A DNA stretch of 64,000 nucleotides, from the NCBI RefSeq assembly GCF_003790525.1, contig NZ_CP033635.1, one strand, 5' to 3'. Every line of letters begins with the position of its first letter. The stretch's first letter is position 1. The DNA is from Escherichia coli. GTDB lineage: Bacteria > Pseudomonadota > Gammaproteobacteria > Enterobacterales > Enterobacteriaceae. This document shows, one piece after another, positions 3,558 to 43,500 of this stretch. The notes below the pieces were generated by a model. The model did not search any database. It saw nothing but the letters and a program-made list of their open reading frames with translations, and was not told the origin of the DNA. Position numbers and translations under genes: made by a program.

Positions 3558-6083
<2,526 letters not shown>

Positions 6084-6091
<8 letters not shown>

Positions 6092-6614
6092 GATGTGCCT
6101 CCTGCCATTCCAGCAGACGTTGCTTATAGTGACGCGCCTGTCCTTCGAGGGTTTCGTCGTCACAAATAAAGGTGCAGTGCATGGCAAACGGTGGCAGCCA
6201 GTTCAGCCCGCAGTAGATTGCCGTCGCCTGTAGCGGCTGCGACAGCACATCAAAGCCCGGATGCGCACCAATCTCAAAATGGCTTTCCCCACCGCCGGTC
6301 GTCACCGCCCACAGCAAATGTTTGCCATGCAGCGCCGTGCCGCCGTGACCGTAAGCCCAGCCGTGCGAGAAGACTTTATCGATCCAAAGTTTGAGGAGCG
6401 GTGGAATGCTGTACCACTGCATCGGGTGCTGCCAGACGATCAGATCGGCGCGAGACAGCGCCTCCTGCTCGGCGGCAATATCGATATTGAAGTCAGGATA
6501 GAGTTGATAAAGAGAGCGAATTTCGACGCCTTCCAGCGTCCTTGCCTGTTCAAGCATCCGTTTATTCGCATGGGAATGATGCGGATACGGATGCGCATAA
6601 ATTATAAGAATCAT
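6084..6614 (-). CDS. kefF: KefC ancillary protein / quinone oxidoreductase KefF
   Basis: 176 aa [25 protein letters not shown]... flavodoxin-like NAD(P)H oxidoreductase immediately upstream of kefC. Confidence 0.9.
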
Positions 6615-6721
6615 AGGTAGCCCGCGTGATTACGCCTTTGTTTTCCCACAAAGTGTAGTCATATATTCACGCGGCTTATAGTCAATAATATTGATTCAGA
6701 AAAGAGAGAAATCTGAACAAA

Positions 6722-8053
6722 TTACCCCATTCTCTGCCCGCGGATCGTCATATTGCTGGTCTGCGCCAGTGACATCCCTCGAGTCTCCGGAGCAAACGCT
6801 ACGGAAATCAACAAGCCAAATAGCGAGATACCCGCCCCCATCAGCATGGTGCTACTGATGCCGTAATTATTGATAAAGATTGGCAGTGCCCAGGTCGAAA
6901 CAATGGTGCCAATACGGCTTAAGGACATAATCACGCCCACGGCAGAGGCGCGGATATCCGTCGGGAAGAGTTCATTAGGATAGAGCCACTGCAAATTACC
7001 CGGCCCGCCAGAGAAAAAGGCATACACCGCAAATGCCATCACTACCAGCCAGATCCCCATATCCGGGATCAGCCCCAAAACCGCCAGCGCCAGCGTCATC
7101 ATGGCAAAACTGCCAATCAACAATGGACGCCGTCCGGCGGTGTTTAACCACAGCATCGGCGGAATACAGCCAAGCATAAAGAACAGGCTAATCACCACAT
7201 TCCCCAACGCCGCGTTTTTGCCAACTCCCAATCCCAACAAACCAACGATTTGCGGGCCAAAGGTGTAAATGGCGAACATGGGGATCACCTGGCAGGTCCA
7301 GATGGCGGCAACAAACAGAACAAAAGGAAAATGGCGGCGATTAAACAGATCGCGAAAACGGGTTTGCTGCGGCTGCTCTTCATCGAAAGCCACCGGTTCG
7401 CCAAACAGTTTTATCATCATCTCTTCGCACTCTTTTACTCGCCCTTTGCGTAACAACCAGCGGGGAGATTCAGGCAGTTCGAATCGACCAATCAAAATCA
7501 ACAAACAGGGGATCGCTGCGCTACCCAGCATCCAGCGCCAACCACCTTCCACATCATAAAGCCAGTAACCGACCAGATCGGCGCAGGTCGCGCCGACATA
7601 CCACATCGCGGCAATAAAGCTGATGGAAAACGCCCGCTGACGGGTACTGGAGAACTCGGTGATCATTGAGGTGGCGATGGGATAATCCGCACCGATGACA
7701 ATGCCGATAAGTACCCGCATCACCAACAGTTCGACGGGGGATGAGACAAACATCGTCGCCACAGATATCACGCCGATGGCGATGATATCAATGAGGAACA
7801 TTTTGCGCCGTCCGACTTTATCGGAGATATAGCCAAACAGCGATGTGCCAACGAACAGCCCGGCGAGCGTTCCCGCGCCCAGCAAGCCAATCCAGTCAGC
7901 GTCCAGTTTCAGCGCCGGAGTCAGTTGCTCCAGCGCCACGCCAATCATTACCAGTACATAACCATCCAGAAACGGACCACCGCTTCCCCACAGCAAAATG
8001 CGGCGGTGAATAGAGGAGAATTTAAGATCGTCAAAGTTTCTGGACGGTTGCAT
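6722..8053 (-). CDS. yaaU: MFS transporter YaaU
   Basis: 443 aa multi-pass membrane protein with MFS sugar-transporter-like motifs; conserved position between kefF and fixX. Confidence 0.85.
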   Translation of the reverse strand: MQPSRNFDDLKFSSIHRRILLWGSGGPFLDGYVLVMIGVALEQLTPALKLDADWIGLLGAGTLAGLFVGTSLFGYISDKVGRRKMFLIDIIAIGVISVATMFVSSPVELLVMRVLIGIVIGADYPIATSMITEFSSTRQRAFSISFIAAMWYVGATCADLVGYWLYDVEGGWRWMLGSAAIPCLLILIGRFELPESPRWLLRKGRVKECEEMMIKLFGEPVAFDEEQPQQTRFRDLFNRRHFPFVLFVAAIWTCQVIPMFAIYTFGPQIVGLLGLGVGKNAALGNVVISLFFMLGCIPPMLWLNTAGRRPLLIGSFAMMTLALAVLGLIPDMGIWLVVMAFAVYAFFSGGPGNLQWLYPNELFPTDIRASAVGVIMSLSRIGTIVSTWALPIFINNYGISSTMLMGAGISLFGLLISVAFAPETRGMSLAQTSNMTIRGQRMG

Positions 8054-28651: not shown

Positions 28652-31467
28652 CAGGCAAACTTACGTTTTTCACCGTCACCGGCGACGTTGCTGACACAGC
28701 GGCCGCAGATTTCTGCGTGTTCCGCCACCTTGCCGACATCCTGGGTGTAGTGCCAGCAGCGTGGGCACTTCTCACCTTCGGCTTTACTCAACGCGACTTT
28801 CAGCCCTTTGAGTACTTCGCTCTGCTGAGCATCAGCAGGTGCATCGTTATAGTCTGCAACGGTAGCGCCGGAGGTCAACAGGACAAATCGTAATTCATCG
28901 CCCAGCGCGGTCAGTTTCGCCGCCAGTTCCGGTTCTGCATACAAGGTTACTGCCGCTTCCAGCGAGCCGCCCACTTTCTTGTCGGCACGCGCTTGCTCAA
29001 TGACTTTGTTCACTTCGCCACGCACTTTCAACAGCTCGTCCCAGAACGCATCGTTCATCGCTTCACTGTCTGCCAGACCAAACAGGCCTTCGTACCACTC
29101 GCCGGTGAAGACGTATTTTTCACGTTCGCCCGGCAGGTAGCCCCACACTTCATCAGCGGTGAAGGAGAGGATTGGTGCCATCCAGCGCACCAGCGCTTCT
29201 GCGATGTGATACAGCGCAGTCTGGCAGCTACGACGCGCCACACTGTCAGCTTTGGCGGTATACTGACGGTCTTTGATGATGTCGAGGTAGAATGAACCCA
29301 TCTCAACGGAGCAGAAGCGCATCAGACGCTGTACCACTTCGTGGAAATCGTATGCTTCGTACGCCTTGAGGATGTCTTCCTGTGCCGCTTTCGCACAACC
29401 TACGGCCCAGCGATCCAGTACCACCATCTCTTCCGGTTTCACCATATCTTTTGCCGGATCAAAACCGTTCAGGTTTGCCAGCAGGAAGCGCGCGGTGTTA
29501 CGGATACGACGATAGCTGTCGGCAGCACGTTTCAGGATTTCGTCAGAAACGGCCATTTCACCAGTGTAGTCAGTTGATGCCACCCACAGACGCAGAATAT
29601 CCGCGCCCAGTTTGTTCATCACATCCTGCGGCGAAACGGTGTTGCCGATGGATTTAGACATCTTGCGGCCCTGACCATCCACGGTAAAGCCGTGGGTCAG
29701 TACCTGACGATACGGTGCTTTGCCCTTCATCGCGGTAGAGATCATCAGAGAGGACATGAACCAGCCACGGTGCTGGTCTGAACCTTCCAGATACATGTCC
29801 GCAGCGTGACCGGCAAATTCCGGACGCACGTCAACAACGGAAGAGTGGGTAGATCCGGAGTCAAACCATACGTCGAGAGTATCCGGCACTTTCACGTACT
29901 GATCAGCTTCATCGCCGAGGATCTCTTTCGCATCGAGATCCCACCACGCCTGGATGCCGTCAACTTCCACGCGTTTAGCCACTTCTTCCATCAGTTCGAG
30001 GGTACGCGGATGCAGCTCTTCCGTGTCTTTATGCACGAACAGTGACATCGGTACGCCCCAGGTGCGCTGACGGGAGATACACCAGTCAGGACGGTTAGCA
30101 ACCATCGACTCGATACGCGCCTGGCCCCAGTCCGGGATCCACTGCACGCCTTTGATCTCTTTCAGTGACTGCGCACGCAGACCTTTCTGATCCATGCTGA
30201 CGAACCACTGCGGCGTCGCACGGAAGATGATCGGCGTTTTGTGACGCCAGCAGCACGGATAGCTGTGCTGCATTTTCTCAACGTGCAACAGCGCGCCTTT
30301 TTCCTGCAGCAGCGCAACAACGATGTCGTTCGCTTTGAAAACGTTCACGCCATCCAGCGTCGGGTAAGTACCCGGCAGATAAGTGCCGTCCGGGCCAACC
30401 GGGTTAGCGGTTTCCAGGCCGTATTTCTGACCGATCACATAGTCGTCCGGGCCGTGGCCAGGCGCGGTGTGAACGGCACCGGTACCGGCATCCAGGGTAA
30501 CGTGATCGCCGAGGATTGCCGGAACGTCGAAGCCCATAAACGGATGGGTAAAGCGCAGCAGCTCAAGCTCTGCACCTTTTACCGTGCCGAGAATGGTGTA
30601 ATCGGTCACGCCGATACGCTGCATTACGCTTTCAACCAGATCTTTTGCCAGAATCACGGCCTGACCGTCGATCTGCACCAGCACATAGTCGAAATCAGGT
30701 GCAATAGAGATTGCGCGGTTCGCAGGCAGAGTCCACGGCGTAGTGGTCCAGATCACCAGCGAGATTGGGCCGTTAACGTTGCTTACGGCAAATTTTGCTT
30801 TCAGTGCATCCTGATCGACCGCCTGGAAAGCGACGTCGATGGACGGAGAAGTTTTGTCGTAATACTCAACTTCCGCTTCCGCCAGCGCAGAACGGCAGTC
30901 AACGCACCAGTGTACCGGCTTCGCGCCTTTGTGCAGGTGACCGTTGCCGATGATTTTGCCCAGCGCGCGGATGATATTGGCTTCAGTTTTGAAGTCCATG
31001 GTCAGGTACGGGTGCGACCAGTCGCCCAGCACGCCCAGACGGATAAAGTCTTTGCGTTGACCGTCAACCTGGGTCGCAGCGTATTCGCGGCACTTGGCGC
31101 GGAACTCGGCAGCGGTGAATTTCTCACCCGGCTTACCGTATTCTTGCTCTACTTTCAGCTCGATCGGCAGACCATGACAGTCCCAGCCAGGCACATACGG
31201 CGAGTCATAACCGGAAAGCCCTTTGGACTTCACGATAATGTCTTTCAGAATCTTGTTAACCGAGTGACCAATATGAATGCTGCCATTCGCATAAGGAGGG
31301 CCATCATGCAGAATGAAGGTTTTTTTGCCTTTTTTAGCCGCACGGATGATGCCGTACAGATCATCATCAGTCCAACGCGCCAGCATTCCCGGTTCGCGCT
31401 TGGCGAGATCGCCACGCATCGGGAACCCTGTTTCCGGCAAATTCAGGGTTGATTTATAGTCACTCAT
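28651..31467 (-). CDS. ileS: Isoleucine--tRNA ligase
   Basis: 938 aa with HIGH ([11 protein letters not shown]) and KMSKS motifs; C-terminal zinc-binding cysteines. Confidence 0.97.
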
Positions 31468-32758: not shown

Positions 32759-33043
<285 letters not shown>

Positions 33044-33066: not shown

Positions 33067-33097
33067 GAAAAAGCCCGCGCAAGCGGGTTTTTTTATG
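33067..33097 (+). terminator. Rho-independent terminator of rpsT
   Basis: aaaaagcccgcgcaagcgggttttttt: GC stem-loop followed by T-run 24 nt after rpsT stop. Confidence 0.75.
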
Positions 33098-33450
33098 CCT
33101 GCACGCCTGGAAATTTCAAATGAAAGGCATATCTCTTTTACTTATTTCTGCCGCCATATATTTCCCCAAGTATAAAACATTTAACATTTCATCATAAAAG
33201 TTAAAATGTTTTATTCTCTGATAAAACGTGAACTGCATAACAAAATACAGAGAAACAAAGCCAAAAACGAATTAACGCAAACTTAAAACGAAAAATTATA
33301 ATTGTCGCCATCACTCTCCTTAACTAACCTCATTCCCACAACGTTGTTTAAATCATTAATAAATATGCATTAAGGAAAGTCAGTATGTATTTGCTTAGAA
33401 AATAAAAGCTTTTTTTCTGAGACAGGCATTCTTGTTCTGGAGAGAATATA

Positions 33451-34824
33451 ATGAGTTCCGTCATTGAAACTACTCAATCAACTTCATCCGATTCCTTACC
33501 TTTAATACAGCGGATTAGCTACGGCTCACTGGATGTTGCCGGTAATCTGCTCTACTGTTTTGGCTCTACCTACATTCTTTATTTCTACACCGACGTAGCA
33601 GGGATTAGTCTGGCGGTTGCAGGCATAATCCTACTGCTGGCGCGCATTGTAGACGGTATTGATGCGCCAGTGTGGGGAATCATTATCGATAAAACCCATT
33701 CGCGTTATGGAAAATGCCGTCCATGGTTTTTATGGTTACCATTACCTTTTGCTGTATTTAGTGCGCTTTCTTTCTGGTCACCCGATATCAGCATGACAGG
33801 GAAAGCTGTTTATGCAGCAATATCGTACATGTTAGCCAGCATTCTGTTCACTGGGTTGAATACACCATTAAGCGCTATATTACCGCTGATGACGCTGTCA
33901 CCAAAGGAACGCCTGGTATTAAACTCATATCGCATGACTGGTGGGCAAATTGGCGTACTATTAATGAATGCGACAGCATTGCCATTGGTCGCTTTCCTTG
34001 GTAATGGTAACGATAAAGCAGGCTTTATATATACTGCCATAGTCTTTGCCGTAATATCCTGTGCCTTAACGTTGTTTGCCTTTAAAAATATTCGCGAACT
34101 GGATACCGATAAAATACAGCAAGAACCACGACTGCCGATGAAAAAGAGTTTTTCGGCAATGAAAGGGAACTGGCCGTGGCTCCTGATGGTAGTGGCGAAC
34201 CTTATCTTCTGGATTGCCCTACAGCAGCGCAACACTACTATTGTTTACTATTTAACCTACAATCTGGATCGCAAAGATCTGGTCCCGCTGGTTAACAGCC
34301 TCGCCACCATTCAGATCCTGTTTATCATTGCCATTCCGTTCTTCAGTCGCTATCTCACCAAAACCTGGATTTGGATTACCGGGCTGCTGGTTGCGATGTT
34401 AGGCGGGGGCCTCATGTGGCTGGCTGCCGACAGCATCCCTTTGATGATCGCCGCCTGGGTACTCGCCAATATCGGCAGCGGTATCGCCTGTTCTATGCCT
34501 TTCGCGATGCTCGGTTTCGCCGTTGACTTTGGTCGCTGGAAAACCGGCATTAAAGCTACCGGCATTCTGATCGCCTTCGGCAGCACCTTCTGCATCAAGA
34601 TGGGCAGTGGTATCGGTACAGCTTTCGCTGCCTTTATTATGGACAGCTTTGGTTATATCCCCAACCAACAACAGACGGCTGCGGGGTTGGAAGGTATCAG
34701 CCTGGCATTTATCTGGGTCCCTGCGCTGCTCTTTGCTCTCGCGGCTGTACCACTGCTCTTCTTTCGCCAGTATGAAGCGATGGAAGGTCGTATCCAACAC
34801 GATCTGCAAGCCCACAATCGTTGA
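33451..34824 (+). CDS. Glycoside-pentoside-hexuronide (GPH) family cation symporter (MelB/YicJ/YihO-like), accessory
   Basis: 457 aa, 12-TM-like; N-terminal GPH signature YGSLDVAGN...YFYTDVAGISLAVAGIILLLARIVDGIDAPVWGIIIDKTHSRYGKCRPW; RBS GGAGAG upstream. Confidence 0.85.
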   Translation: MSSVIETTQSTSSDSLPLIQRISYGSLDVAGNLLYCFGSTYILYFYTDVAGISLAVAGIILLLARIVDGIDAPVWGIIIDKTHSRYGKCRPWFLWLPLPFAVFSALSFWSPDISMTGKAVYAAISYMLASILFTGLNTPLSAILPLMTLSPKERLVLNSYRMTGGQIGVLLMNATALPLVAFLGNGNDKAGFIYTAIVFAVISCALTLFAFKNIRELDTDKIQQEPRLPMKKSFSAMKGNWPWLLMVVANLIFWIALQQRNTTIVYYLTYNLDRKDLVPLVNSLATIQILFIIAIPFFSRYLTKTWIWITGLLVAMLGGGLMWLAADSIPLMIAAWVLANIGSGIACSMPFAMLGFAVDFGRWKTGIKATGILIAFGSTFCIKMGSGIGTAFAAFIMDSFGYIPNQQQTAAGLEGISLAFIWVPALLFALAAVPLLFFRQYEAMEGRIQHDLQAHNR

Positions 34825-34863
34825 ATTTAATCAACATGCCACTTGCTCCTGGGAGGAACAATT

Positions 34864-36903
34864 ATGTCGTTTATTAAGCAAGATCCCCACCGTCTGGTCT
34901 GGCAACAAGACGATCGTTATCTCTGGATTGAAGCCTGGGGCGAAAACAGCTTACGCGTGCGAAGCGGCCGCCATTTACCGGTAATGCGCAATGAAAACTG
35001 GGCGTTAACTCAGGATCCTGGCGATGCTGTCGCTCATATCACCTGGGATGAAAAACAGGCAACGCTGAGAAATGGTAAAATCACTGCCATCGTAAATCTT
35101 CAGGGCCAGCTCTCTTTCTGGCGTAATGATGATAAATGCCTGCTGCAAGAGTTCTGGCGTCAACGTGGCGAAATTGGTGAAGATGAGTCAGCACACGGCC
35201 AATATGTGAGCGCTCTTAATCTACAGGCCCGTGAATTCAAGCCTATTCCTGGCGGGAAATTTACGATTAAGGCACGATTTGAAGCCAACGATGGCGAGAA
35301 ACTCTTTGGCATGGGTCAGTATCAGCAACCAAACCTGGATTTAAAAGGTTGCATGCTGGAGCTGGCACAACGTAACTCGCAGGCTTCTGTTCCCTTCCTG
35401 CTATCAAATCAGGGTTATGGTTTTCTGTGGAATAACCCAGCAATTGGCCGCGTCACCTTCGCGCAAAACGGTACGGAATGGGTAGCAGAAGTCAGTGAAC
35501 AACTGGACTACTGGATCACTGCGGGCGATACTCCGGCTGAGATCAGTGAAGCCTATGCACGAGTAACCGGTACGCCACCGATGATGCCTGATTACGCAAT
35601 GGGGTTCTGGCAATGCAAGCTTCGCTATCGTAATCAACAAGAATTGTTAGAAGTCGCACGCGGCTACAAGCAACGCAATCTTCCGATCTCGGTGATTGTC
35701 ATCGATTTCTTCCATTGGCCGAATCAGGGTGACTGGATGTTCGATCTGCGTGACTGGCCCGATCCCGATGCGATGATCGCCGAATTAAAAGAAATGGGTA
35801 TCGAACTGATGGTTTCATTCTGGCCTACCGTAGATAACCGTACCGAGAGTTATCGGGAGATGAAAGAAAACGGCTGGCTAGTCCACACCGAGCGTGGTTT
35901 GCCTATCAATATGGATTTCCTTGGCAACACCACGTTCTTTGATGCGACACATCCTGGCGCACGGGAATATGTCTGGAACAAAGCCAAACGCAATTATTAC
36001 GATAAAGGCGTGAAACTGTTCTGGCTGGATGAAGCCGAGCCAGAGTTCGGTGTTTACGATTATGACAACTATCGTTACTACGCAGGGCCAGTGCTGGAAG
36101 TCGGTAATATCTATCCGCGTATGTACGCCAAAACGTTCTTCGATGGCATGCAGGCAGCCGGAGAAAAGCAGGTGATCAATTTGCTACGCTGCGCCTGGGC
36201 CGGTAGTCAGAAATATGGTGCCCTGGTGTGGTCAGGCGATATCCACTCCTCCTTCCGTTCTCTGCGCAATCAGTTTGCTGCGGGGCTGAACATGGGAATT
36301 GCCGGGATCCCGTGGTGGACGACGGATATTGGCGGTTTCCACGGTGGCAACATACATGATCCAAAATTTCATGAACTGCTTATTCGCTGGTTCCAGTGGG
36401 GGGTATTCAGCCCAGTAATGCGTTTACATGGCAACCGCGACCCGCAAGTTTTGCCTGAACAACCCTATCGTGATGGCATCGCACAATGTCCGACTGGCGC
36501 GCCGAATGAAGTCTGGAGCTATGGTGAAGAAACCGGTGAAATTCTCACTTCCTGCCTGCAGTTGCGTGAGAAGCTGAAACCTTATATCAGTAAAATTATG
36601 GCTGAGACGCACGAGAAGAACAGCCCGGTAATGCGCACGATGTTCTTTGAGTTTCCAGACCAGGCAGAAAGCTGGAATATTTATGATCAGTACTGCTTTG
36701 GCCCGGACCTTCTCGTTGCCCCTGTAATGCACGAAGGTACACGTTCACGTGATGTCTGGTTGCCTGCCGGAGAGACATGGATCGATTTTTATACCCATGA
36801 ACACTACGCGGGTGGGCAAAAGCTTCATCATTGCGCGCCGCTGCACCAGATACCGGTATTCATTCGTGAGAAAGGGAAATATCGCCAGTTATTACCCGTT
36901 TAA
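34864..36903 (+). CDS. Glycoside hydrolase family 31 enzyme (alpha-xylosidase/alpha-glucosidase/sulfoquinovosidase-like), accessory
   Basis: Track ORF trimmed to ATG at 34864 (RBS GGGAGG); 679 aa; GH31-like motifs around FWLDEAEPE (putative nucleophile Asp) and WSGDIHS (putative acid/base Asp); paired with GPH transporter as in yicJI / yihOPQ. Confidence 0.8.
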   Translation: MSFIKQDPHRLVWQQDDRYLWIEAWGENSLRVRSGRHLPVMRNENWALTQDPGDAVAHITWDEKQATLRNGKITAIVNLQGQLSFWRNDDKCLLQEFWRQRGEIGEDESAHGQYVSALNLQAREFKPIPGGKFTIKARFEANDGEKLFGMGQYQQPNLDLKGCMLELAQRNSQASVPFLLSNQGYGFLWNNPAIGRVTFAQNGTEWVAEVSEQLDYWITAGDTPAEISEAYARVTGTPPMMPDYAMGFWQCKLRYRNQQELLEVARGYKQRNLPISVIVIDFFHWPNQGDWMFDLRDWPDPDAMIAELKEMGIELMVSFWPTVDNRTESYREMKENGWLVHTERGLPINMDFLGNTTFFDATHPGAREYVWNKAKRNYYDKGVKLFWLDEAEPEFGVYDYDNYRYYAGPVLEVGNIYPRMYAKTFFDGMQAAGEKQVINLLRCAWAGSQKYGALVWSGDIHSSFRSLRNQFAAGLNMGIAGIPWWTTDIGGFHGGNIHDPKFHELLIRWFQWGVFSPVMRLHGNRDPQVLPEQPYRDGIAQCPTGAPNEVWSYGEETGEILTSCLQLREKLKPYISKIMAETHEKNSPVMRTMFFEFPDQAESWNIYDQYCFGPDLLVAPVMHEGTRSRDVWLPAGETWIDFYTHEHYAGGQKLHHCAPLHQIPVFIREKGKYRQLLPV

Positions 36904-36924
36904 AGGACATCGTTTGTTCATTAG

Positions 36925-36949
36925 CACGCCCCGTATATAGCGGGGCGTG
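36925..36949. terminator. Bidirectional hairpin between the GH31 gene and nhaR
   Basis: cacgccccgtatatagcggggcgtg perfect stem-loop between convergent genes. Confidence 0.5.
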
Positions 36950-36960
36950 AGTTTTAATAT

Positions 36961-37866
36961 CTATCGTGAGGCGGGAGAAAACAACGAAGAATAATCCGTA
37001 TTGCAGATTCGCTGTACCGCCGGGTGCTGAATCATCCGCTCAGCAAAAATAGCATGGTACTCTTCCATCACATTTTCGACGCGACCAATTTCTACGACAG
37101 TTTTATCGGCATAAAAGTCATATGCATAAAGCGTTGGGGCAACGAAGATTGCATTGTGCATCGCACCAAAAGCTTTCATCAACGCGGCATCATCAAACTC
37201 GCCGAGGATTTCTACGTTTAATCCCTGGGAGTTAAACCAGTTAAGCAATTTGCGCCCTAACATTGAACGTCGCCCAGGAATCAAAAGCCGCCGTTCTTCC
37301 AGACAAGCCGGGAACGGTTTTTCCGGTGGTGGATTTGTACACCAGAAACTCACGCCACATTCGCCAATTCTCACGGAGAACAGACCTTCCTGCTGCGTAG
37401 AATCTATCGGACAGTCGGAAATGATCATATCCAGTTTATGCTGACTTAATTGCTCCAGCAGCATTTCGTGGGTGGATTCGAAGCAGCGAAGATGAATCGG
37501 CTCGCCTTCTACCACTGCGGCGTTAAGTACGCTACTGACCAGGCGTTTAGAAAGTGCATCAGCCACGCCAACGTCAAACAATAAATTGGATTCTTTGCGA
37601 TAGTTCACGATATCCAGCATTTCCTGGCTTAAGGTGAACATTTTATCGGCATAGCGATAGACCAGCTCTCCCAGCTCGCTGGGCTCGAGGCCACGTCCCT
37701 TGCGCTTAAATAATTTGCCTTGCAGGCGCTCTTCCAGCGCCCGAATCTGTCCGGTAATGGTTTGTGGTGTTAAATAAAGCGCCTCCGCTGCGCCAACCAC
37801 GGAACCTTCTTTATAGACATGCCAGAAGTAATACAAGTGGTTGTAATTGATATGAGACATGCTCAT
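36961..37866 (-). CDS. nhaR: LysR-family transcriptional activator NhaR
   Basis: Track ORF trimmed to [45 protein letters not shown]..., 301 aa. Confidence 0.95.
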
Positions 37867-37925
37867 TTCTCTCCCTGATAACAATGAAAAGGGAGCCGTT
37901 TATGGCTCCCCGGTAAACCGTCCTG

Positions 37926-39092
37926 TCAAACTGATGGACGCAAACGAACGCGTAACCAGCTGTATCCAATTACCGCCGAAGAGATAGAACCGACCAGGAT
38001 ACCGAGTTTCGCCCAGTTAATCAGTTCTGGATCTACGCTACCAAAGGCAAGGCTGGCAATAAAGATAGACATAGTAAAACCGATACCGCATAGGATCCCC
38101 ACCGCCATAATTTGCTGATAAGTCGTTCCCTCAGGCAGATGCGCCAGTTTCAAACGCAGCGCCAACCAGCAGAACAGACTAATACCCAGTGGCTTGCCAA
38201 TCAGCAAACCGGCGATGATCCCTAATGGCAGAATGGAGGTCAGGCCATCCAGCGTCACGCCTTGCAGAGATACCCCCGCATTGGCAAACGCAAACAACGG
38301 CAAAATCAGATATGCCACCCACGGATGCAAAACATGCTCCAGACGTTTAGCCGGAGAGCGCCCATGCTTCTCTTTTAACGGAATAAAGAAGCCGACAATG
38401 ACGCCAGCCAGCGTTGCATGGACACCTGATTTCAACACCGCTGTCCACAGTACCACGCCAACCAGAATATAAACGCCCGTGCGACGAACACCACAGATAT
38501 TCAGTACCGCGAGTACGGCAATCGCTACTGCCGCAACGCCGAGAGACGCCATCGATAAGTCATTAGTGTAGAACAATGCGATGATAATGATGGCCCCAAG
38601 ATCGTCGATAATAGCCAGAGCCATCAAAAAGATCTTCAGCGCTAACGGAACACGACTTCCCAACAGCGCCAGCACACCAAGTGCAAAGGCAATGTCAGTA
38701 GCCGCCGGGATCGCCCACCCTTCGCGGGTAATCGGATCGGCATAGTTAAAGGCCAGATAGAGCAATGCCGGCACAATCATCCCACCAATAGCGGCGATAA
38801 CTGGAAATGCGGCCTGGCGTAAGCTGGCTAGCGATCCTTGCATCAGTTCACGTTTAACTTCCAGACCGACTAACAGGAAAAATACCGCCATCAGCGCGTC
38901 ATTTATCCATAACAGCATGTTTTTGTTGATTTCGAGTGAACCAACCCGGAGCTGAACCGGCGTCTCCAGAAAGTCGTGATACCATCCACTGGTTGCGCCG
39001 CTATTGGCCATAATCATCGCCAGGATAGCGGCAATGATAAGAATAATGCCTCCCGAGGCATCACTGCTAAAGAATCGATGCAGATGTTTCAC
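37926..39092 (-). CDS. nhaA: Na+/H+ antiporter NhaA
   Basis: 388 aa [48 protein letters not shown]... Confidence 0.97.
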
Positions 39093-39343
39093 TTTTTATT
39101 TCTCTTTCAGGTGAATAGATCGTTTTTACTATTTTACCCCGCACGAATCATCGTTAAAATCAGATTATAGTGTAGGAATAATTCGTTTTTTACGAACCAT
39201 TGAAGGATTTGTGCCATCAGCGATGAGATGATTTTTTGACGGCTGTAAGCGCTCACGAGTGACCCTAAGCCCTGATAATCATAGCTTAAGGTGAGGATTT
39301 CTGAGGGATTAATTAGGAAAAGTAATAATAAAATCGCACTGTG

Positions 39344-40588
39344 CTATAGCTGTTTATTCCAGAGATGCTTGAAAATATCTAATGTGGAGACAACATTGGC
39401 AGGCGACATTCGGTTTAATGAGGATAGAAAGGGATGAGACTCCAGGAAGTTGATAAAACGAGTCGCGCTTGCTAACGTCGAATACCGCATTTCATTTGCT
39501 TTCTTGTTTCCTGTAAGGTTACAAACAGCCATTGAATAATCACGGGCGGAAAATGTACGCCAAACATTATTTCTCACGCCACCACTCAAAAACAACCGCG
39601 GCGGCGTATCATAATGAGTCGTTTTCTCGCCGCGTTCTTTCACAAATGAAATATGGCACCGGCCTTGATGAATATGCTGTAAATTAGCCATCAGACAACC
39701 ACCTAATATAAAGCACTCGTGATCAAGGTAGTGTTGAATATTTATAGAATATGCTTCAGTCAGTGCTCTAACCAGTTCAAAATGGCGATACGCCGGAAGA
39801 ACCGGTTTCACCAACATCCCCGGATCGTTTTGATGTAATATCGCCCGACCATAATCAATATCAAATAAGGTATCACGCCGCATAGTAAGTAACTCCTTGC
39901 GTTGTACGTGATGCGCCAGTGTACCTGGAGACAAACGCTCTTCATAACTTGATGCATATTGATAATGCGACTCTACCGCTGATGGAGAATAATTTGTTGA
40001 AATAGCGACGACTCTACCGCTTTGTTCTTCTGCGGTAACAAGGCTATAAAGATAGTTATTACTACCGTTAAACTTTACGCGAAAAGCGCGGGTAGATAGA
40101 GAAATATCAGAAGCAGAAGAGTATTGGTAACTTTCTTTATAGTTTACTTCCCGGGCTAGTTTCATCAACTCACGGTTAAGCCCTGTGCTATTAAGAAGTA
40201 ATAATTTACGGATATCTGCAAGTGAAGCGCCTTGATCAATCATCAATGCTAAATGTGTTCTTCGCGGCGTTGTATTTACATGATCCAGAGTGATAAAAGT
40301 TCTGGAACAATGATGACAATACATTCTCCTCTGCCCCTGAGCTGAATAGCCATACTTTTTCAGAGATGTGCTTCCGCAAGCTGAACATTGTGGAACCAAC
40401 CCTCTCCATGAATGATTAACACGATTACGATAAATATTAAGAGATCGTTCAGATATCACAGGAAACAAGTAACCGCATTCCCGACATAAAATATTTTTTC
40501 CTTGTGCAATATAATCCTGGCTATTCAACAACCCCAGGTTTTTGCATCCTGGTGTTTTGCAACAATCAACATTTACGTTGGTAAACAT
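39344..40588 (-). CDS. Hypothetical protein with two N-terminal CxxC...CxxC zinc-ribbon motifs (IS1 InsA / transposase-type zinc finger-like), accessory
   Basis: Track ORF 39344-40624; preferred start at internal ATG 40588 preceded by AGGGAG RBS; motifs CKNLG...CRECG and CSACGSTSLKKYGYSAQGQRRMYCHHCSRTF resemble InsA CPSCSATDG...GHQRYLCSHCRKTW; very AT-rich. Confidence 0.6.
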   Translation of the reverse strand: MFTNVNVDCCKTPGCKNLGLLNSQDYIAQGKNILCRECGYLFPVISERSLNIYRNRVNHSWRGLVPQCSACGSTSLKKYGYSAQGQRRMYCHHCSRTFITLDHVNTTPRRTHLALMIDQGASLADIRKLLLLNSTGLNRELMKLAREVNYKESYQYSSASDISLSTRAFRVKFNGSNNYLYSLVTAEEQSGRVVAISTNYSPSAVESHYQYASSYEERLSPGTLAHHVQRKELLTMRRDTLFDIDYGRAILHQNDPGMLVKPVLPAYRHFELVRALTEAYSINIQHYLDHECFILGGCLMANLQHIHQGRCHISFVKERGEKTTHYDTPPRLFLSGGVRNNVWRTFSARDYSMAVCNLTGNKKANEMRYSTLASATRFINFLESHPFLSSLNRMSPANVVSTLDIFKHLWNKQL

Positions 40589-40717
40589 ATTCACTCCCTG
40601 CGAATACCCGGATATTATCGTCATATGTCAAAGAAAAGAACCTGACTCAATGTGTAACATTGAATCAGGCGGGCATGGCCCTGAAAGGCATACATTACAT
40701 TTATTATGGTTATCAGA

Positions 40718-42211
40718 TTAGCCCCAGGTTACCGCTTCCGGTTTATCACCTCTGGCTTTCATTAATGAATCATTATCAATATCGGCTTTATACTTTAAGA
40801 ACTTACCATACATTTGTTTTTCAATGTCTGGATTTTTACCTATCTGATTAATGGTCTCAAAACGATCGGTTTTGAGGTTGTATAGGTACTTTGGCTTATT
40901 GTTACGATCGATGATCATTTTCCAGTCACCATCACGTATCGCCCATTCGTCGGTTGGATCATCCTGGAATGGCATGTCAATTCCGAAGATTAATGGCTTT
41001 TCACGTTTTAGCGCTTTGTTCTCAAGGACAGGAACCAACGATTCGCCATCAAAAGTCCGGTCCGTCGGTAATTTGAAGTTCATCATTTTCGCCAGCGTAG
41101 GCATCCAGTCCAGACCATAAACAGGCGTATCTGAAACCATTCCCTTTGGAAGATGCTTTCCGTATTTAATAATCGCCGGAACACGGATGCCACCTTCCCA
41201 GAGATTATCCTTGCGACCACGTAATCCATCAGTTTCCCCTGCCAAATTCAGTTCATAAACTTTGCGCGCTTCACGCGTTACTGGTCCGTTATCACTGGTA
41301 AAAATAACGATGGTGTTATCTTCTTCACCCATCGCTTTGATTTTATCCAGTACTTTTCCAACCTGAGCATCCAGATAACTGATGTTGGCATAATATTCTC
41401 CTGTACCACGCCAGGGTTTATCCGCCCAGTCGCCATAAAATAAATCAGGATGCTGCTTCTGATAGTCGCTCATATATTGTGAGTACATGTCGAGGTATTT
41501 TTTGGGCGAAGCCAGGGGACTGTGCACTTCGGTAAAAGCGACATAAAGGAAGAAAGGCTTACTGTCCTTTTTGTTATCCAACCAGTTGACGACTTCCGAA
41601 CTGACATACTCACCACTCATTTTATCGGAACGTGGTGTGGGTTGCCCGTTACGCAACCAGCCCGTTGGATAGACCATGCCAAAACGGGGACGCTCCTTCG
41701 CATTATCCAGAGTAGCGTCGGTAACAAAACCCGCCGTATTAACCAGTGAGTAATCAAAGCCCATATCTTTTGCCTGCGGCTGATCGGTGCGATCGCCGCC
41801 TGCATTCAGATGCAGCTTACCCATCATGGCCGTGTCGTACCCTTGCGCTTTGAGTAGATTAGCAATCGTGAGTTCATTACGCCCTAATGCCACATCTTTT
41901 CCCGTTGGGATCCATGAGCGTATGCCGGTACGAAATGGCATCCGCCCTGTTAATAGTCCCGCCCGTGAAGGAGAACTTAAGGGGGCAGGTGCATAATAGT
42001 CGGTAAATTTGACGCCTTCCTGGGCAAGCCTGTCTATATTGGGCGTTTTAACGATCTGATGTCCATATGTTGCCAAATCACCATAGCCTAAATCATCCGC
42101 CATAATGATGACTAAATTGGGTTGTTTAGTTTCGGCGGCTACGGCTGGATTAAAAGCATTCCCTGTGCAAACTGCAAGGCCGATCAAACTGGCCATTAAT
42201 GTTTTCTGCAT
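40718..42211 (-). CDS. Secreted Ser-type sulfatase (arylsulfatase A family), accessory
   Basis: Track ORF trimmed to MQKTLMASLIGLAVCTGNAFNPAVAA (signal peptide); IIMADDLGYGDL and sulfatase signature LSSPSRAGLLTGR with Ser in place of the formylglycine-precursor Cys. Confidence 0.85.
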   Translation of the reverse strand: MQKTLMASLIGLAVCTGNAFNPAVAAETKQPNLVIIMADDLGYGDLATYGHQIVKTPNIDRLAQEGVKFTDYYAPAPLSSPSRAGLLTGRMPFRTGIRSWIPTGKDVALGRNELTIANLLKAQGYDTAMMGKLHLNAGGDRTDQPQAKDMGFDYSLVNTAGFVTDATLDNAKERPRFGMVYPTGWLRNGQPTPRSDKMSGEYVSSEVVNWLDNKKDSKPFFLYVAFTEVHSPLASPKKYLDMYSQYMSDYQKQHPDLFYGDWADKPWRGTGEYYANISYLDAQVGKVLDKIKAMGEEDNTIVIFTSDNGPVTREARKVYELNLAGETDGLRGRKDNLWEGGIRVPAIIKYGKHLPKGMVSDTPVYGLDWMPTLAKMMNFKLPTDRTFDGESLVPVLENKALKREKPLIFGIDMPFQDDPTDEWAIRDGDWKMIIDRNNKPKYLYNLKTDRFETINQIGKNPDIEKQMYGKFLKYKADIDNDSLMKARGDKPEAVTWG

Positions 42212-42230
42212 AATTATTCCCTGATGAAAA

Positions 42231-42992
42231 TTAGAAATCATAACCAAGCATATAAATCATTTGATCGCCAAAACCATCGTAGCCCAACTTATTATCGAAA
42301 TAACGCCACGTCACACTGGCTTTCCAGCGAGGATAGAACTTCCAGGCCACTGTTAAACCGCCATTTAGCCCATTCCGACCAAATTGTTGTTCCGCATAGG
42401 CATCATTTCTGTCCAGTTCTATTTCATTCCAGTTAGATAAAACAAATTTTTCGTCAAATAACGTAAAAGGTAATACTGCTGTCCAGCCAACAACATAACC
42501 ATTCCAGCCATTTGTTTGTCCATATTTGGCTGAGACGTAGTCTCCAGATTGATTATGTAATCCAATATACGGTTTAAAAAACCCCCATGAACCATTCCAG
42601 CCGAGGTAGCCCAAACCATAAAACATATCAAGATCGTCACCCCATGAGTTATCCCATTGACCATAGATCTTGCCAAAGAAAGTCATATTGGAGTCAAAGA
42701 GTCTGACATGTGTCATAGCAGAAACGGTATGATTACGCCCCGCTACGGCATGGTTAAGCACATTGCTTTCATAAAATGAGTAAAACTCGGCTTCTTTAAA
42801 ATTCACACCAAAGTCTGCAGTCACTTTCCATACTTCACCACGATGAGTGTTAACGAAGCCACTATTCCAGTCAGCATAACCTGCATTTATTGAGCCAAAG
42901 GAACCTTTATATTCTAATGAAGAATATGCAGGAAGGTGATAGAAAATCGTTGTCAGGGCACACGCAATAAGAAGCCGTCTTTTGGCAGACAT
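42231..42992 (-). CDS. Tsx-family outer membrane channel protein, accessory
   Basis: 253 aa with signal peptide, aromatic-rich beta-barrel-like sequence ending ...MIYMLGYDF (compare Tsx C-terminus ...VVGYNF); RBS GGAGAG; 19 nt upstream of sulfatase gene. Confidence 0.7.
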   Translation of the reverse strand: MSAKRRLLIACALTTIFYHLPAYSSLEYKGSFGSINAGYADWNSGFVNTHRGEVWKVTADFGVNFKEAEFYSFYESNVLNHAVAGRNHTVSAMTHVRLFDSNMTFFGKIYGQWDNSWGDDLDMFYGLGYLGWNGSWGFFKPYIGLHNQSGDYVSAKYGQTNGWNGYVVGWTAVLPFTLFDEKFVLSNWNEIELDRNDAYAEQQFGRNGLNGGLTVAWKFYPRWKASVTWRYFDNKLGYDGFGDQMIYMLGYDF

Positions 42993-43500
42993 ATAATATG
43001 CTCTCCATTCATTTTTTTTATGGTTCCATAGAAATCAATACATCAGATAATTCATTTTGATTAAGAACGACTCAGAAAGTATATTTAAAGGTGAATGGCA
43101 AAGCGTGATGGAGATCGCAGATTACTTTTACCCCCGGGTGTGGAGGTATCGTGTTTCAAAAAGTGTGTCGATTTTAAATATCACTCATTGATTTATAAAC
43201 ATTTTTCCTCACAAAAAGAAAATTCAATTCTGTACAAGAATATTTTGTATCTTCTATTACTTTCTCCAGTAATAACTCACCATTCAGGCATAACTTAAAC
43301 CTCTTGTTCATAATCTCAACTTTTGTAAATGAAAACGCACATAAGAGTTAAAATAAACAATGTACTAAAGATTGATTACGCAAAAATGCGAGGCGTCTTC
43401 AGGATTAGAATCGATAAAACAGAATGGGTTAAAGAGAGCGATATAATAGCGGCGGGTGCTTGAGGCTGTCTGTCTCAGGCATTAGCTGAACGGCAGATAG

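Follow-up and report, generated by a model that had tools for sequence, protein, structure and literature searches.

The window analyzed here is a 64,000-nucleotide stretch of Escherichia coli contig NZ_CP033635.1, in which, according to its open reading frame list, the interval between rpsT and nhaR holds two genes: one for a GPH (glycoside-pentoside-hexuronide):cation symporter of 457 aa (33451..34824, + strand) and one for a predicted cytoplasmic GH31 alpha-xylosidase of 679 aa (34864..36903, + strand). A sequence-only reading of this DNA had placed a symporter and a hydrolase of these sizes between the rpsT terminator and nhaR, with no adjacent regulator visible; both reading frames and both family assignments were confirmed, and no regulator was found next to the pair. 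RefSeq labels the two genes merely "MFS transporter / GH31 family protein." Upstream, rpsT (32780-33043) is followed by a terminator hairpin and T-run (33070-33094), and downstream, nhaR (36961-37860) is convergent with the pair. The hydrolase length is counted from an ATG at 34864; an alternative TTG start lies at 34843. The 39-nt intercistronic spacer (34825..34863, + strand) carries a Shine-Dalgarno sequence, GGGAGG (34851-34856), and no terminator, indicating that the symporter and hydrolase genes form one operon. An intrinsic terminator with a 10-bp stem (8 G-C pairs) and a T-rich tail lies between the convergent hydrolase and nhaR genes (36925..36949, + strand).

The hydrolase matched all three GH31 domains, namely the TIM-barrel catalytic domain (PF01055, 269.9 bits, Pfam cut-off 23.5) and the N- and C-terminal ones; the domain search returned these three only, without PA14, and the protein lacks a signal peptide. 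The earlier reading had proposed putative catalytic Asp residues in the motifs WLDEAEPE and WSGDIHS. Both motifs are present, and their Asp residues, D389 and D459, share alignment columns with D416/D482 of YicI and D405/D472 of YihQ, where they are invariant, which establishes the catalytic pair on alignment. Together with R442, W456, F492, and H522, they line up with active-site residues of YicI. Among solved structures, the five best relatives were all alpha-xylosidases: MeXyl31 (PDB 5ZN6, 1035 bits), 6DRU, 7KMP, 5JOU, and 2XVG; YicI and YihQ scored 166 and 109 bits in the same comparison. Identity to MeXyl31 was about 64% over 664 residues, compared to 28% for YicI and 23% for YihQ, and the YicI equivalog model NF007940 (NCBIfam alpha-xylosidase) gave 245.9 bits, below its cut-off of 606. 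MeXyl31, a soil metagenome enzyme (PDB 5ZN6/5ZN7), resembles the hydrolase in length (687 vs. 679 aa), in its three domains without PA14, and in identical WLDEAEPE and WSGDI motifs, although one residue in three is different. The subfamily label GH31_4 for the MeXyl31 type is taken from PMC10792220 and not from a CAZy/dbCAN subfamily model. MeXyl31 is reported to be highly active on pNP-alpha-xyloside but to lack such activity on isoprimeverose and on oligosaccharides of xyloglucan (PMC10792220). We conclude from these alignments that the hydrolase is a predicted alpha-xylosidase of the MeXyl31 type, at an identity that leaves the enzyme's specificity unfixed. The substrate, left wholly open by the sequence-only reading, is narrowed by this similarity to alpha-xylosides as the predicted class.

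Because GH31 is functionally diverse, the enzyme could instead be an alpha-glucosidase, alpha-galactosidase, or transglycosylase within an operon that imports an alpha-glucoside or similar compound. Sub-threshold NCBIfam matches to alpha-glucosidase models (MalA, 221 bits; PRK10426, 200 bits) would fit such a specificity, as would the lack of a known natural substrate for enzymes of the MeXyl31 type (PMC10792220). We regard this as improbable, since no enzyme other than an alpha-xylosidase appears among the five best solved relatives, alpha-glucosidases score 5-10 times lower, and the predicted XylR-type operator described below ties the operon to xylose. Moreover, the conserved Asp281 is followed by Phe-Phe (F282-F283), at the positions of C307-F308 in YicI and resembling that Cys-Phe; alpha-glucosidases reportedly carry Ile-Asp here, according to work of Okuyama and colleagues from 2006.

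The pair also has both protein families in common with the yihO/yihP-yihQ system (23% identity for the hydrolase, 26-28% for the transporters), and a sulfatase island lies beyond nhaAR on the other side, which together could suggest a module for sulfoquinovose glycosides. Speciale and colleagues are said to have identified R301, W304, and Y508 as the sulfonate-binding residues of YihQ in 2016, and we checked the letters at these positions in the K-12 sequence. In the hydrolase, R301 is replaced by D281 and Y508 by F492; W304 is kept as W285, but YicI has this Trp as well. The hydrolase scored far lower against YihQ than against MeXyl31 and stayed well below the PRK10426 cut-off of 553, and no sulfoglycolysis genes lie next to or downstream of the pair. 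With the sulfonate-binding Arg and Tyr missing, a sulfoquinovosidase identity is refuted at the sequence level, so that of the options the earlier reading wanted separated by these residues, sulfoquinovosidase fails, and a sulfoquinovose module is extremely unlikely. The same reading had wondered whether the two sugar-related islands flanking nhaAR might be linked; CFT073, UTI89, and IAI39 carry the sulfatase island without the pair, and we attribute the proximity to coincidence.

The symporter matched the GPH model TIGR00792 over residues 21-453 (363.8 bits, cut-off 231.35) and MFS_2 with 261 bits (1-423 of 427 covered). None of the named E. coli GPH models (MelB, UidB, YagG, PRK11462 type) was reached, with NCBIfam scores of 224 vs. 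a cut-off of 456, 230 vs. 528, 248 vs. 610, and 174 vs. 836. Identity to YicJ, MelB, YihO, and YihP was 26-28%, and the symporter stands close to no characterized GPH member. Its predicted cation site reads D55/N58/D59, compared to D/D/A at the matching positions of MelB. Related hydrolases in Rahnella, Sphingomonas, and Microvirga are likewise paired with GPH or MFS_2 transporters; the partner of a Clostridium relative is an ABC sugar transporter.

The YicJ-YicI pair of K-12, a putative xyloside transporter and an alpha-xylosidase, has the same gene order, families, and predicted chemistry, with active-site R, W, D, F, and H in common, which supports the sequence-only reading of a glycoside uptake and hydrolysis unit built like yicJ-yicI. 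YicI, at 772 aa, extends further at its N-terminus and has an additional domain at its C-terminus, and identity is 28% for both proteins; the pair is only distantly paralogous to yicJI and yihOPQ (23-28% identity). The PA14-containing GH31_4 enzymes CjXyl31A (2XVG), BoGH31A (5JOU), and a Xanthomonas enzyme (7KMP) share the catalytic-domain clade with the hydrolase (286-314 bits over residues ~200-670). They are 955-1020 aa long, lie in multi-enzyme loci, and bind large xyloglucan oligosaccharides through the PA14 insertion (PMC10792220). In our pair, the absence of PA14 and the presence of nothing more than a symporter point to a small substrate. A similar logic has reportedly been described by Chaillou and colleagues in 1998 for XylP-XylQ of Lactobacillus pentosus, said to be an isoprimeverose symporter and a GH31 alpha-xylosidase under a xylose-responsive regulator. 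Going by that description, XylP-XylQ likewise combines a GPH symporter with a cytoplasmic GH31 enzyme, and it differs in its regulator, a ROK-type repressor rather than the AraC-type activator XylR.

Upstream of the symporter gene, a candidate promoter can be read from the sequence (33302..33330, + strand), with TTGTCG at -35 (33302-33307), a 17-bp spacer, and TAACCT at -10 (33325-33330), from which transcription would start. This geometry equals that of xylA (TTGAGC-17-CAATAT) and xylE (TTGCCT-17-CAACAT), and the Citrobacter counterpart reads TTGATC-17-TACTTT. A generic promoter scan of the intergenic region detected nothing, as would be expected if the promoter is activator-dependent. Abutting the -35 element, in the orientation of the gene, are two predicted XylR half-sites in tandem direct repeat with 21-bp spacing: R1 (AAACGAATTAACGCAAACT; 33265..33283, + strand), the distal member, and R2 (AAACGAAAAATTATAATTG; 33286..33304, + strand), which, like its proximal counterparts at xylA, xylF, and xylE, ends in TAATTG. 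The block is conserved across taxa. Two direct repeats beside -35 are the described layout of XylR sites (PMC3561964), and the xylE promoter combines CRP with tandem XylR (PMC6003448). The K-12 xylAB, xylFGH, and xylE promoters share with the operon the 21-bp spacing of the repeats, the TAATTG proximal end, a weak -35 beginning with TTG, and the 17-bp spacer, whereas their genes serve xylose uptake and catabolism and the operon encodes a glycoside system.

The sites were scored with a weight matrix trained on the K-12 xylA and xylF sites only (four half-sites), with xylE held out and with the register picked after the sequences had been inspected. The tandem at 33265-33304 scored 22.2, ranking first of 127,922 window positions and exceeding the 20.7 of xylE; when a further 129 kb of E. 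coli DNA from outside the window was scored, the maximum was the true xylE site, below the tandem's score. The result held at site lengths of 15, 17, and 19. When all fetched loci, 2.28 million positions in total, were scored, the top 9 fell at this promoter in both E. coli alleles, in four Citrobacter, and in Superficieibacter and Rahnella, with the next best score at 15.4. Seven further operons of this kind, that of Rahnella included, have the site. Nothing similar is present at the yicJ promoter (best score 10.8 vs. 22.2).

These data suggest that XylR, acting in trans, is probably the regulator of the operon. A false positive generated by an AT-rich promoter, with control resting on another unlinked regulator or only on CRP or H-NS, is the most serious competing explanation, and we give it a minority share of our belief. 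The motif is A/T-rich and the matrix small, a xylA-only matrix was uninformative and gave no signal, a plain local alignment of the promoter with the xylA-xylF intergenic region was not significant, and in distant relatives the role falls to LacI or AraC-type response regulators. However, when this AT-rich region was shuffled 2000 times with its dinucleotides preserved, the score was never reached; the held-out xylE site was recovered, the orientation and position next to -35 are correct, and 8 different operon copies have the site at their promoter, among them that of Rahnella, whose promoter cannot be aligned, with a clear score gap to all other DNA.

A weak CRP-like site, CGTGAACTGCATAACA (33227..33242, + strand), is separated by 22 bp from the predicted XylR tandem downstream of it and matches 8/10 consensus positions. 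Its core, GTGA-N6-TA.CA, is kept in E. coli, Citrobacter, and Superficieibacter; CRP-like matches in the window, at 16 observed vs. 25.7 expected, make such a match alone no better than chance. The putative site sits about 10 and 20 bp farther upstream than the CRP sites that we assign by eye at xylF and xylE. CRP-type sites also occur upstream in the xyl promoters (PMC3561964, PMC6003448). In the predicted 5' untranslated region, a conserved 10-bp stem-loop (33393..33422, + strand) has a stem (GCUUAGAAAA/UUUUUCUGAG) kept in 6/6 sequences, with no pair altered on both sides. The leader did not fold better than shuffled sequences (z = -0.79), and a search of Rfam gave no matching family.

The polymorphic segment of the rpsT-nhaR interval spans 33103..36988, from just past the rpsT terminator to within the last ~9 codons of nhaR. 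Comparison of site states showed that all of them share ...TTTTTTTATGCCTGC at the left border and diverge beyond it, and that they come together again at ...AGAATAATCC, inside nhaR. At least four states exist in E. coli: the pair, espX1 with fimbriae, an empty site, and IS1. K-12 has IS1A and a 138-bp fimbrial pseudogene remnant with no trace of the pair, in line with the earlier reading, which put IS1 and little else there in K-12. The pair is found in 638/5426 complete E. coli genomes, among them ST131 strains such as SE15 and an SMS-3-5-like group; K-12, O157, and the B2 strains CFT073 and UTI89 lack it. At this locus, SMS-3-5 and some 60 further complete genomes match the window with 100% identity. 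E. coli has two alleles of the pair, with about 87% identity overall, and identity between them switches at the segment borders from 98-100% outside to 70-88% within.

The sequence-only reading took the pair for an accessory island. A recent, strain-specific island at the site where K-12 has IS1 would be compatible with the limited number of genomes that carry the pair, with the AT-rich upstream intergenic region (34% GC), and with alleles that differ by about 13% in DNA, far above the flanks, a divergence that implies import of at least one allele from a diverged lineage. However, four Citrobacter species, Klebsiella spallanzanii, and Superficieibacter have the pair at this site too, and the order ileS-ribF-rpsT-GPH-GH31-nhaR-nhaA is preserved in other genera. 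Third-position identity to Citrobacter is 0.50-0.51 for the pair, equal to that of the neighboring core genes (nhaR, 0.52; nhaA, 0.50), and gene GC is 48-50%, as in nhaR and nhaA. The interval holds no integrase, transposase, or tRNA and no flanking direct repeats, and its borders, one within nhaR, resemble homologous-recombination breakpoints. A recent island is therefore unlikely, and the pair was not inserted in this strain. On this evidence, the Escherichia/Citrobacter group has long had the pair at this place in the chromosome, and what K-12 shows is a derived state.

Purifying selection on both genes is strong. A comparison of the two E. coli alleles gave dN/dS ratios of 0.029 (symporter) and 0.038 (hydrolase), and against Citrobacter the ratio was about 0.04 (dS across these comparisons, 0.55-1.09). 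Loss of the pair from most E. coli lineages and an ISApl1 insertion in the hydrolase gene of two genomes could be read as signs of cryptic or decaying genes without function. Given such low ratios at deep synonymous divergence, intact reading frames annotated at full length in essentially all listed genomes, and conserved promoter elements, we find decay very hard to believe.

Together, these data make it likely that the two genes form a catabolic operon that serves the use of a small alpha-xyloside, with control by XylR included in that reading. The symporter would import the alpha-xyloside with a cation (H+ or Na+), and the cytoplasmic hydrolase would release alpha-D-xylose by retaining double displacement, in which D389 would act as the nucleophile and D459 as the acid/base; the xylose would then pass to XylA/XylB. 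XylR-xylose bound to the two repeats would activate the weak promoter, probably assisted by CRP-cAMP, such that glucose would repress the operon and the hydrolysis product would induce it in a feed-forward loop. More tentatively, and with considerable doubt on our part, the operon may be an unrecognized member of the XylR regulon for an alpha-xyloside other than the classical xyloglucan product; if so, its lineage-restricted retention could mirror a difference in gut nutritional niche. A literature search returned no paper that mentions the protein pair.

The pair, which gains a concrete predicted function and regulator in place of bare database labels, does not overturn current understanding and belongs to a familiar class of sugar-scavenging units. 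If this assignment is right, E. coli would have a second alpha-xyloside system, separate from yicJI and linked to xylose sensing. The IS1 site of K-12 can now be seen as a degraded version of a polymorphic locus with four states, the history of which is of use to E. coli population genomics and to the study of ST131 metabolism. Finally, the pair places the question of what PA14-less MeXyl31-type enzymes naturally act on in a genetically tractable host.

The interval between rpsT and nhaR contains the two open reading frames that the sequence-only reading had placed there: a GPH-family symporter of 457 aa (33451-34824, plus strand) and a GH31 hydrolase of 679 aa counted from its ATG (34864-36903, plus strand). 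On the left the interval is limited by the rpsT terminator (hairpin and T-run, 33070-33094), and on the right the pair is convergent with nhaR, whose stop codon lies at 36961. Because the frames share a strand, are separated by a 39-nt spacer that lacks a terminator and carries the ribosome-binding site GGGAGG, and are followed by a strong terminator 3' of the GH31 gene (36925-36949), they form a two-gene operon. The reported absence of an adjacent regulator gene was borne out at the locus. The locus in the window is 100% identical to that of E. coli SMS-3-5 and of about 60 further complete genomes, and RefSeq names the products merely "MFS transporter" and "glycoside hydrolase family 31 protein". 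The sequence-only reading placed IS1 at this site in K-12, and IS1A was indeed found there, together with a 138-bp fimbrial pseudogene remnant.

The hydrolase contains three GH31 domains and none besides. Compared with all solved structures, it was closest by a wide margin to MeXyl31 (5ZN6; 1035 bits, with 64% of 664 residues identical), a soil-metagenome alpha-xylosidase with which it grouped, and the next four matches (6DRU, 7KMP, 5JOU and 2XVG; 286-335 bits) were all alpha-xylosidases; YicI scored 166 bits. The catalytic Asp motifs proposed from the sequence, WLDEAEPE and WSGDIHS, held on alignment, where D389 lined up with D416, the nucleophile of YicI, and D459 with its acid/base residue D482, and R442, W456, F492 and H522 coincided with further YicI active-site residues. 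After the conserved D281 the hydrolase has Phe-Phe and YicI has Cys-Phe; alpha-glucosidases reportedly have Ile-Asp at this two-residue place (Okuyama et al. 2006). A check for a sulfoquinovosidase of the YihQ type had also been proposed, and the sulfonate-binding residues spoke against one: YihQ R301 and Y508 correspond to D281 and F492 of the hydrolase, YihQ reached only 109 bits in the structure search, and this option was dismissed. From these comparisons, the hydrolase is very probably an alpha-xylosidase.

The N-terminus (MSFIKQDPHRLVW...) shows no signal peptide, and the enzyme is therefore taken to be cytoplasmic. According to PMC10792220, a PA14 insertion enables CjXyl31A and BoGH31A to hold large xyloglucan oligosaccharides; unlike these two enzymes, the window hydrolase was found by domain search to be missing the insertion. 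That paper describes MeXyl31, of subfamily GH31_4, as highly active on pNP-alpha-xyloside but not on isoprimeverose or xyloglucan oligosaccharides, and its authors infer that the natural substrates may be unknown alpha-xylosides; both the subfamily label and the MeXyl31 specificity are second-hand here, taken via PMC10792220. On this activity profile, xylose is well supported as the sugar set free by the hydrolase, more so than any particular aglycone.

The symporter matched the GPH model TIGR00792 over its full length (363.8 bits; cut-off 231) as well as Pfam MFS_2, and fell far under every cut-off of the equivalog models for named E. coli GPH proteins. YicJ, MelB, YihO and YihP were only 26-28% identical to it, and by these comparisons it is orthologous to no named E. 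coli GPH protein. The MelB cation-site residues D55/N58/D59 correspond to D/D/A in the symporter, so the coupling ion may be either H+ or Na+. Both genes are under strong purifying selection. Between the two E. coli versions of the pair, allele A (that of the window) and allele B, many synonymous differences were accompanied by few amino-acid changes, with a dS of 1.09 and dN/dS of 0.029 for the symporter and a dS of 0.55 and dN/dS of 0.038 for the hydrolase; dN/dS of the pair against Citrobacter was about 0.04. In NZ_CP029747.1 and NZ_CP041996.1, which are otherwise identical genomes, an ISApl1 (IS30-like) insertion splits the GH31 gene.

Alignment of the upstream regions of E. coli alleles A and B, four Citrobacter and Superficieibacter revealed conserved blocks within a poorly conserved, AT-rich spacer. 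XylR operators consist of two direct repeats adjoining the -35 element, and XylR is reported to bind the known sites at about 25-33 nM (PMC3561964); the xylE promoter combines CRP with tandem XylR sites (PMC6003448). When the upstream region was aligned locally with the intergenic DNA of xylA-xylF and of yicJ, scores stayed inside the shuffle range, and a weight-matrix test was substituted. The matrix was built from only four half-sites, those of the K-12 xylA and xylF promoters, which form 21-bp tandem repeats that were also recovered by automatic search, and tandem pairs were scored. Positions 33265-33304 had the top score, 22.2, ranking first of 127,922 positions on both strands of the 64-kb window. 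Every position in a further 129 kb of E. coli DNA scored below 22.2, the maximum there (20.7) being the genuine xylE operator, which was outside the training set, and when the AT-rich region was shuffled 2000 times with dinucleotides preserved, all scores fell short of 22.2. The result was stable when the site length was set to 15, 17 or 19 and with a xylF-only matrix; the signal was lost with a xylA-only matrix (two sequences). Over the 2.28 million positions of all loci compared, the top nine matches all lay at the promoter of this operon and the next scored 15.4. Tandem scores were 21.8-23.1 in Citrobacter, 22.2 for allele A, 19.8 for allele B, 20.2 in Superficieibacter and 21.0 in Rahnella. 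Upstream of K-12 yicJ (5931-6222 of the compared locus L085, minus strand), the 10-mer GAATTAACGC is common with the distal predicted half-site (33265-33283); the best tandem score there was only 10.8.

The window promoter also resembles promoters of the XylR regulon. Both predicted half-sites have an ACGAA core. The hexamer TAATTG (33299-33304) closes the proximal repeat, as it does at xylA, xylF and xylE, and its TTG begins a weak -35 element, TTGTCG (33302-33307, plus strand), which is followed after 17 bp by TAACCT at the -10 position (33325-33330, plus strand). Transcription is predicted to start near 33337. A generic promoter scan of the intergenic region gave no match. A conserved CRP-like sequence (33227-33242) lies 22 bp upstream of the predicted XylR site; its consensus match at 33227 does not exceed chance, the window shows no enrichment of such matches, and we retained it on conservation alone. 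Control of the operon by XylR is likely on these sequence grounds. XylR-xylose would activate the operon, CRP-cAMP would probably add activation, and the product of hydrolysis would in this way induce its own supply route.

Other features of the upstream region were less distinctive. A 10-bp stem-loop (GCUUAGAAAA...UUUUUCUGAG, 33393-33422) in the predicted leader, some 30 nt before the start codon of the symporter, is kept in E. coli and Citrobacter, with no compensatory changes or covariation and no T-run behind it. The leader RNA fold was not significantly stable, and an Rfam scan of the leader found no family, only sub-threshold matches caused by the rpsT terminator. An AT-rich near-palindrome upstream of the CRP-like site (33169-33217; 24-nt arms, 79% complementary, 1 nt apart) was unconserved in allele B and Citrobacter.

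We scanned for homologues in one genome per species. The closest relatives among the matches listed (81-86% protein identity) came from Citrobacter (werkmanii, youngae, portucalensis and sp. FP75), Klebsiella spallanzanii and Superficieibacter electus. Loci covering both flanks had the order ileS-ribF-rpsT-GPH-GH31-nhaR-nhaA throughout, and the shorter loci (Superficieibacter, K. spallanzanii and C. portucalensis) agreed on the single flank included. Third-position identity to Citrobacter was 0.50-0.51 for the pair, 0.52 for nhaR and 0.50 for nhaA; the GC content of the pair was ordinary, and integrase, tRNA and flanking repeat were all absent at the locus. Given this shared gene order, nhaAR-like divergence, ordinary composition and absence of mobility signs, the pair appears to be old here and the K-12 arrangement derived; we are highly confident that the pair is ancestral at the rpsT-nhaR site. 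A plasmid search returned no close copies of the pair, bar a single E. coli record of 834 kb (96.8% identity), and brought up the Rahnella megaplasmid module described below. Salmonella LT2 may have a similar pair at this site; neither Salmonella nor other Escherichia species occurred among the best 80 loci listed.

Farther afield, relatives of the hydrolase at about 55-62% identity were common in Firmicutes among the matches listed, which also included Sphingomonas, Microvirga and spirochaetes. In Clostridium beijerinckii the GH31 gene comes after an AraC-type response regulator and an ABC sugar transporter, and in Sphingomonas and Microvirga it has a LacI regulator on one side and an MFS_2/GPH transporter on the other, with a CBM35 protein and a TonB-dependent receptor coming next. 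Paenibacillus pectinilyticus was the exception, with other glycosidases (GH38, GH32 and a protein resembling alpha-1,3-glucanase) and an isolated ABC ATPase gene as neighbours. Rahnella aceris again has a bare GPH-GH31 pair (4496-8040 of locus L094), carried on the 617-kb megaplasmid pRAHAQ01 with a XylR-type tandem site 129 nt upstream. Its hydrolase is 64% identical to that of E. coli and its symporter only 28%, which together with the site points to the same enzyme clade, a different transporter lineage and the same predicted control; because the module sits among unrelated genes on a megaplasmid and its GPH gene is so diverged, the Rahnella site is close to independent. Three out of four examined contexts, plus Rahnella, have the enzyme with a transporter and no adjoining beta-glucosidase or beta-galactosidase, and this common pairing fits a small alpha-xyloside as substrate. 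The likeness to yicJ-yicI drawn earlier stood as regards the mode of working but not as orthology. The xylP-xylQ genes of Lactobacillus pentosus are said to work on the same principle.

Within E. coli, the interval occurs in at least four states: the GPH-GH31 pair, in 638 of 5426 complete genomes (SMS-3-5, SE15); the type III effector gene espX1 with a chaperone-usher fimbrial operon of four genes (O157 and IAI39, with a degraded form in IAI1); an empty 95-bp spacer (CFT073, UTI89); and IS1A with the fimbrial remnant (K-12). The second state fills the interval in most other E. coli. The fimbrial operon has a frameshift in O157 and a truncation in IAI1, and the K-12 "fimbrial family protein" fragment is the last remnant of this operon. 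Allele A was present in 73 genomes and allele B in 566, among them the ST131 strains SE15 and "O25b:H4-ST131". The variable segment runs from 33103, directly after the rpsT terminator, to about 36988, within the last approximately nine nhaR codons. This nhaR 3' end (36961-36990) exists in at least three versions that use different codons for nearly one peptide (SSLFSPASR in the window, SALFSPAVR in K-12 and O157, SALFTPASK in CFT073), and since the version co-segregates with the content of the adjoining interval, a recombination breakpoint lies inside nhaR. DNA identity between alleles A and B was only 80-88% over 33100-35750 and 93-98% across the greater part of 35750-36950, which makes the region a mosaic; set against flanks of 96-100%, this indicates that at least one allele came from a diverged lineage by homologous replacement. 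Separately, 29547-30946 (inside ileS) and 37546-38945 (nhaR/nhaA) were 91-95% identical between the two lineages, compared with 98-100% around them, which suggests further recombination imports round the locus.

The island left of nhaA (39146-43000; an ompK-like gene, a sulfatase and a 426-aa protein with a zinc-binding domain) is also highly diverged, with 75-90% identity between SMS-3-5-like and ST131-like lineages. A link between this sulfatase island and the pair had been suspected, but CFT073, UTI89 and IAI39 have the island without the pair, so its distribution is independent and the proximity a coincidence.

Literature searches with four RefSeq protein accessions and the SMS-3-5 locus tags of the pair gave no match, and those on isoprimeverose/yicJ, ST131 with xylosidase, and rpsT/nhaR/espX1 returned nothing relevant and no paper naming the pair. 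The pair is a new, uncharacterised example of a familiar type of system, with nothing that would greatly surprise a specialist; what it offers is a regulatory prediction that is specific and testable, and a population distribution of interest.
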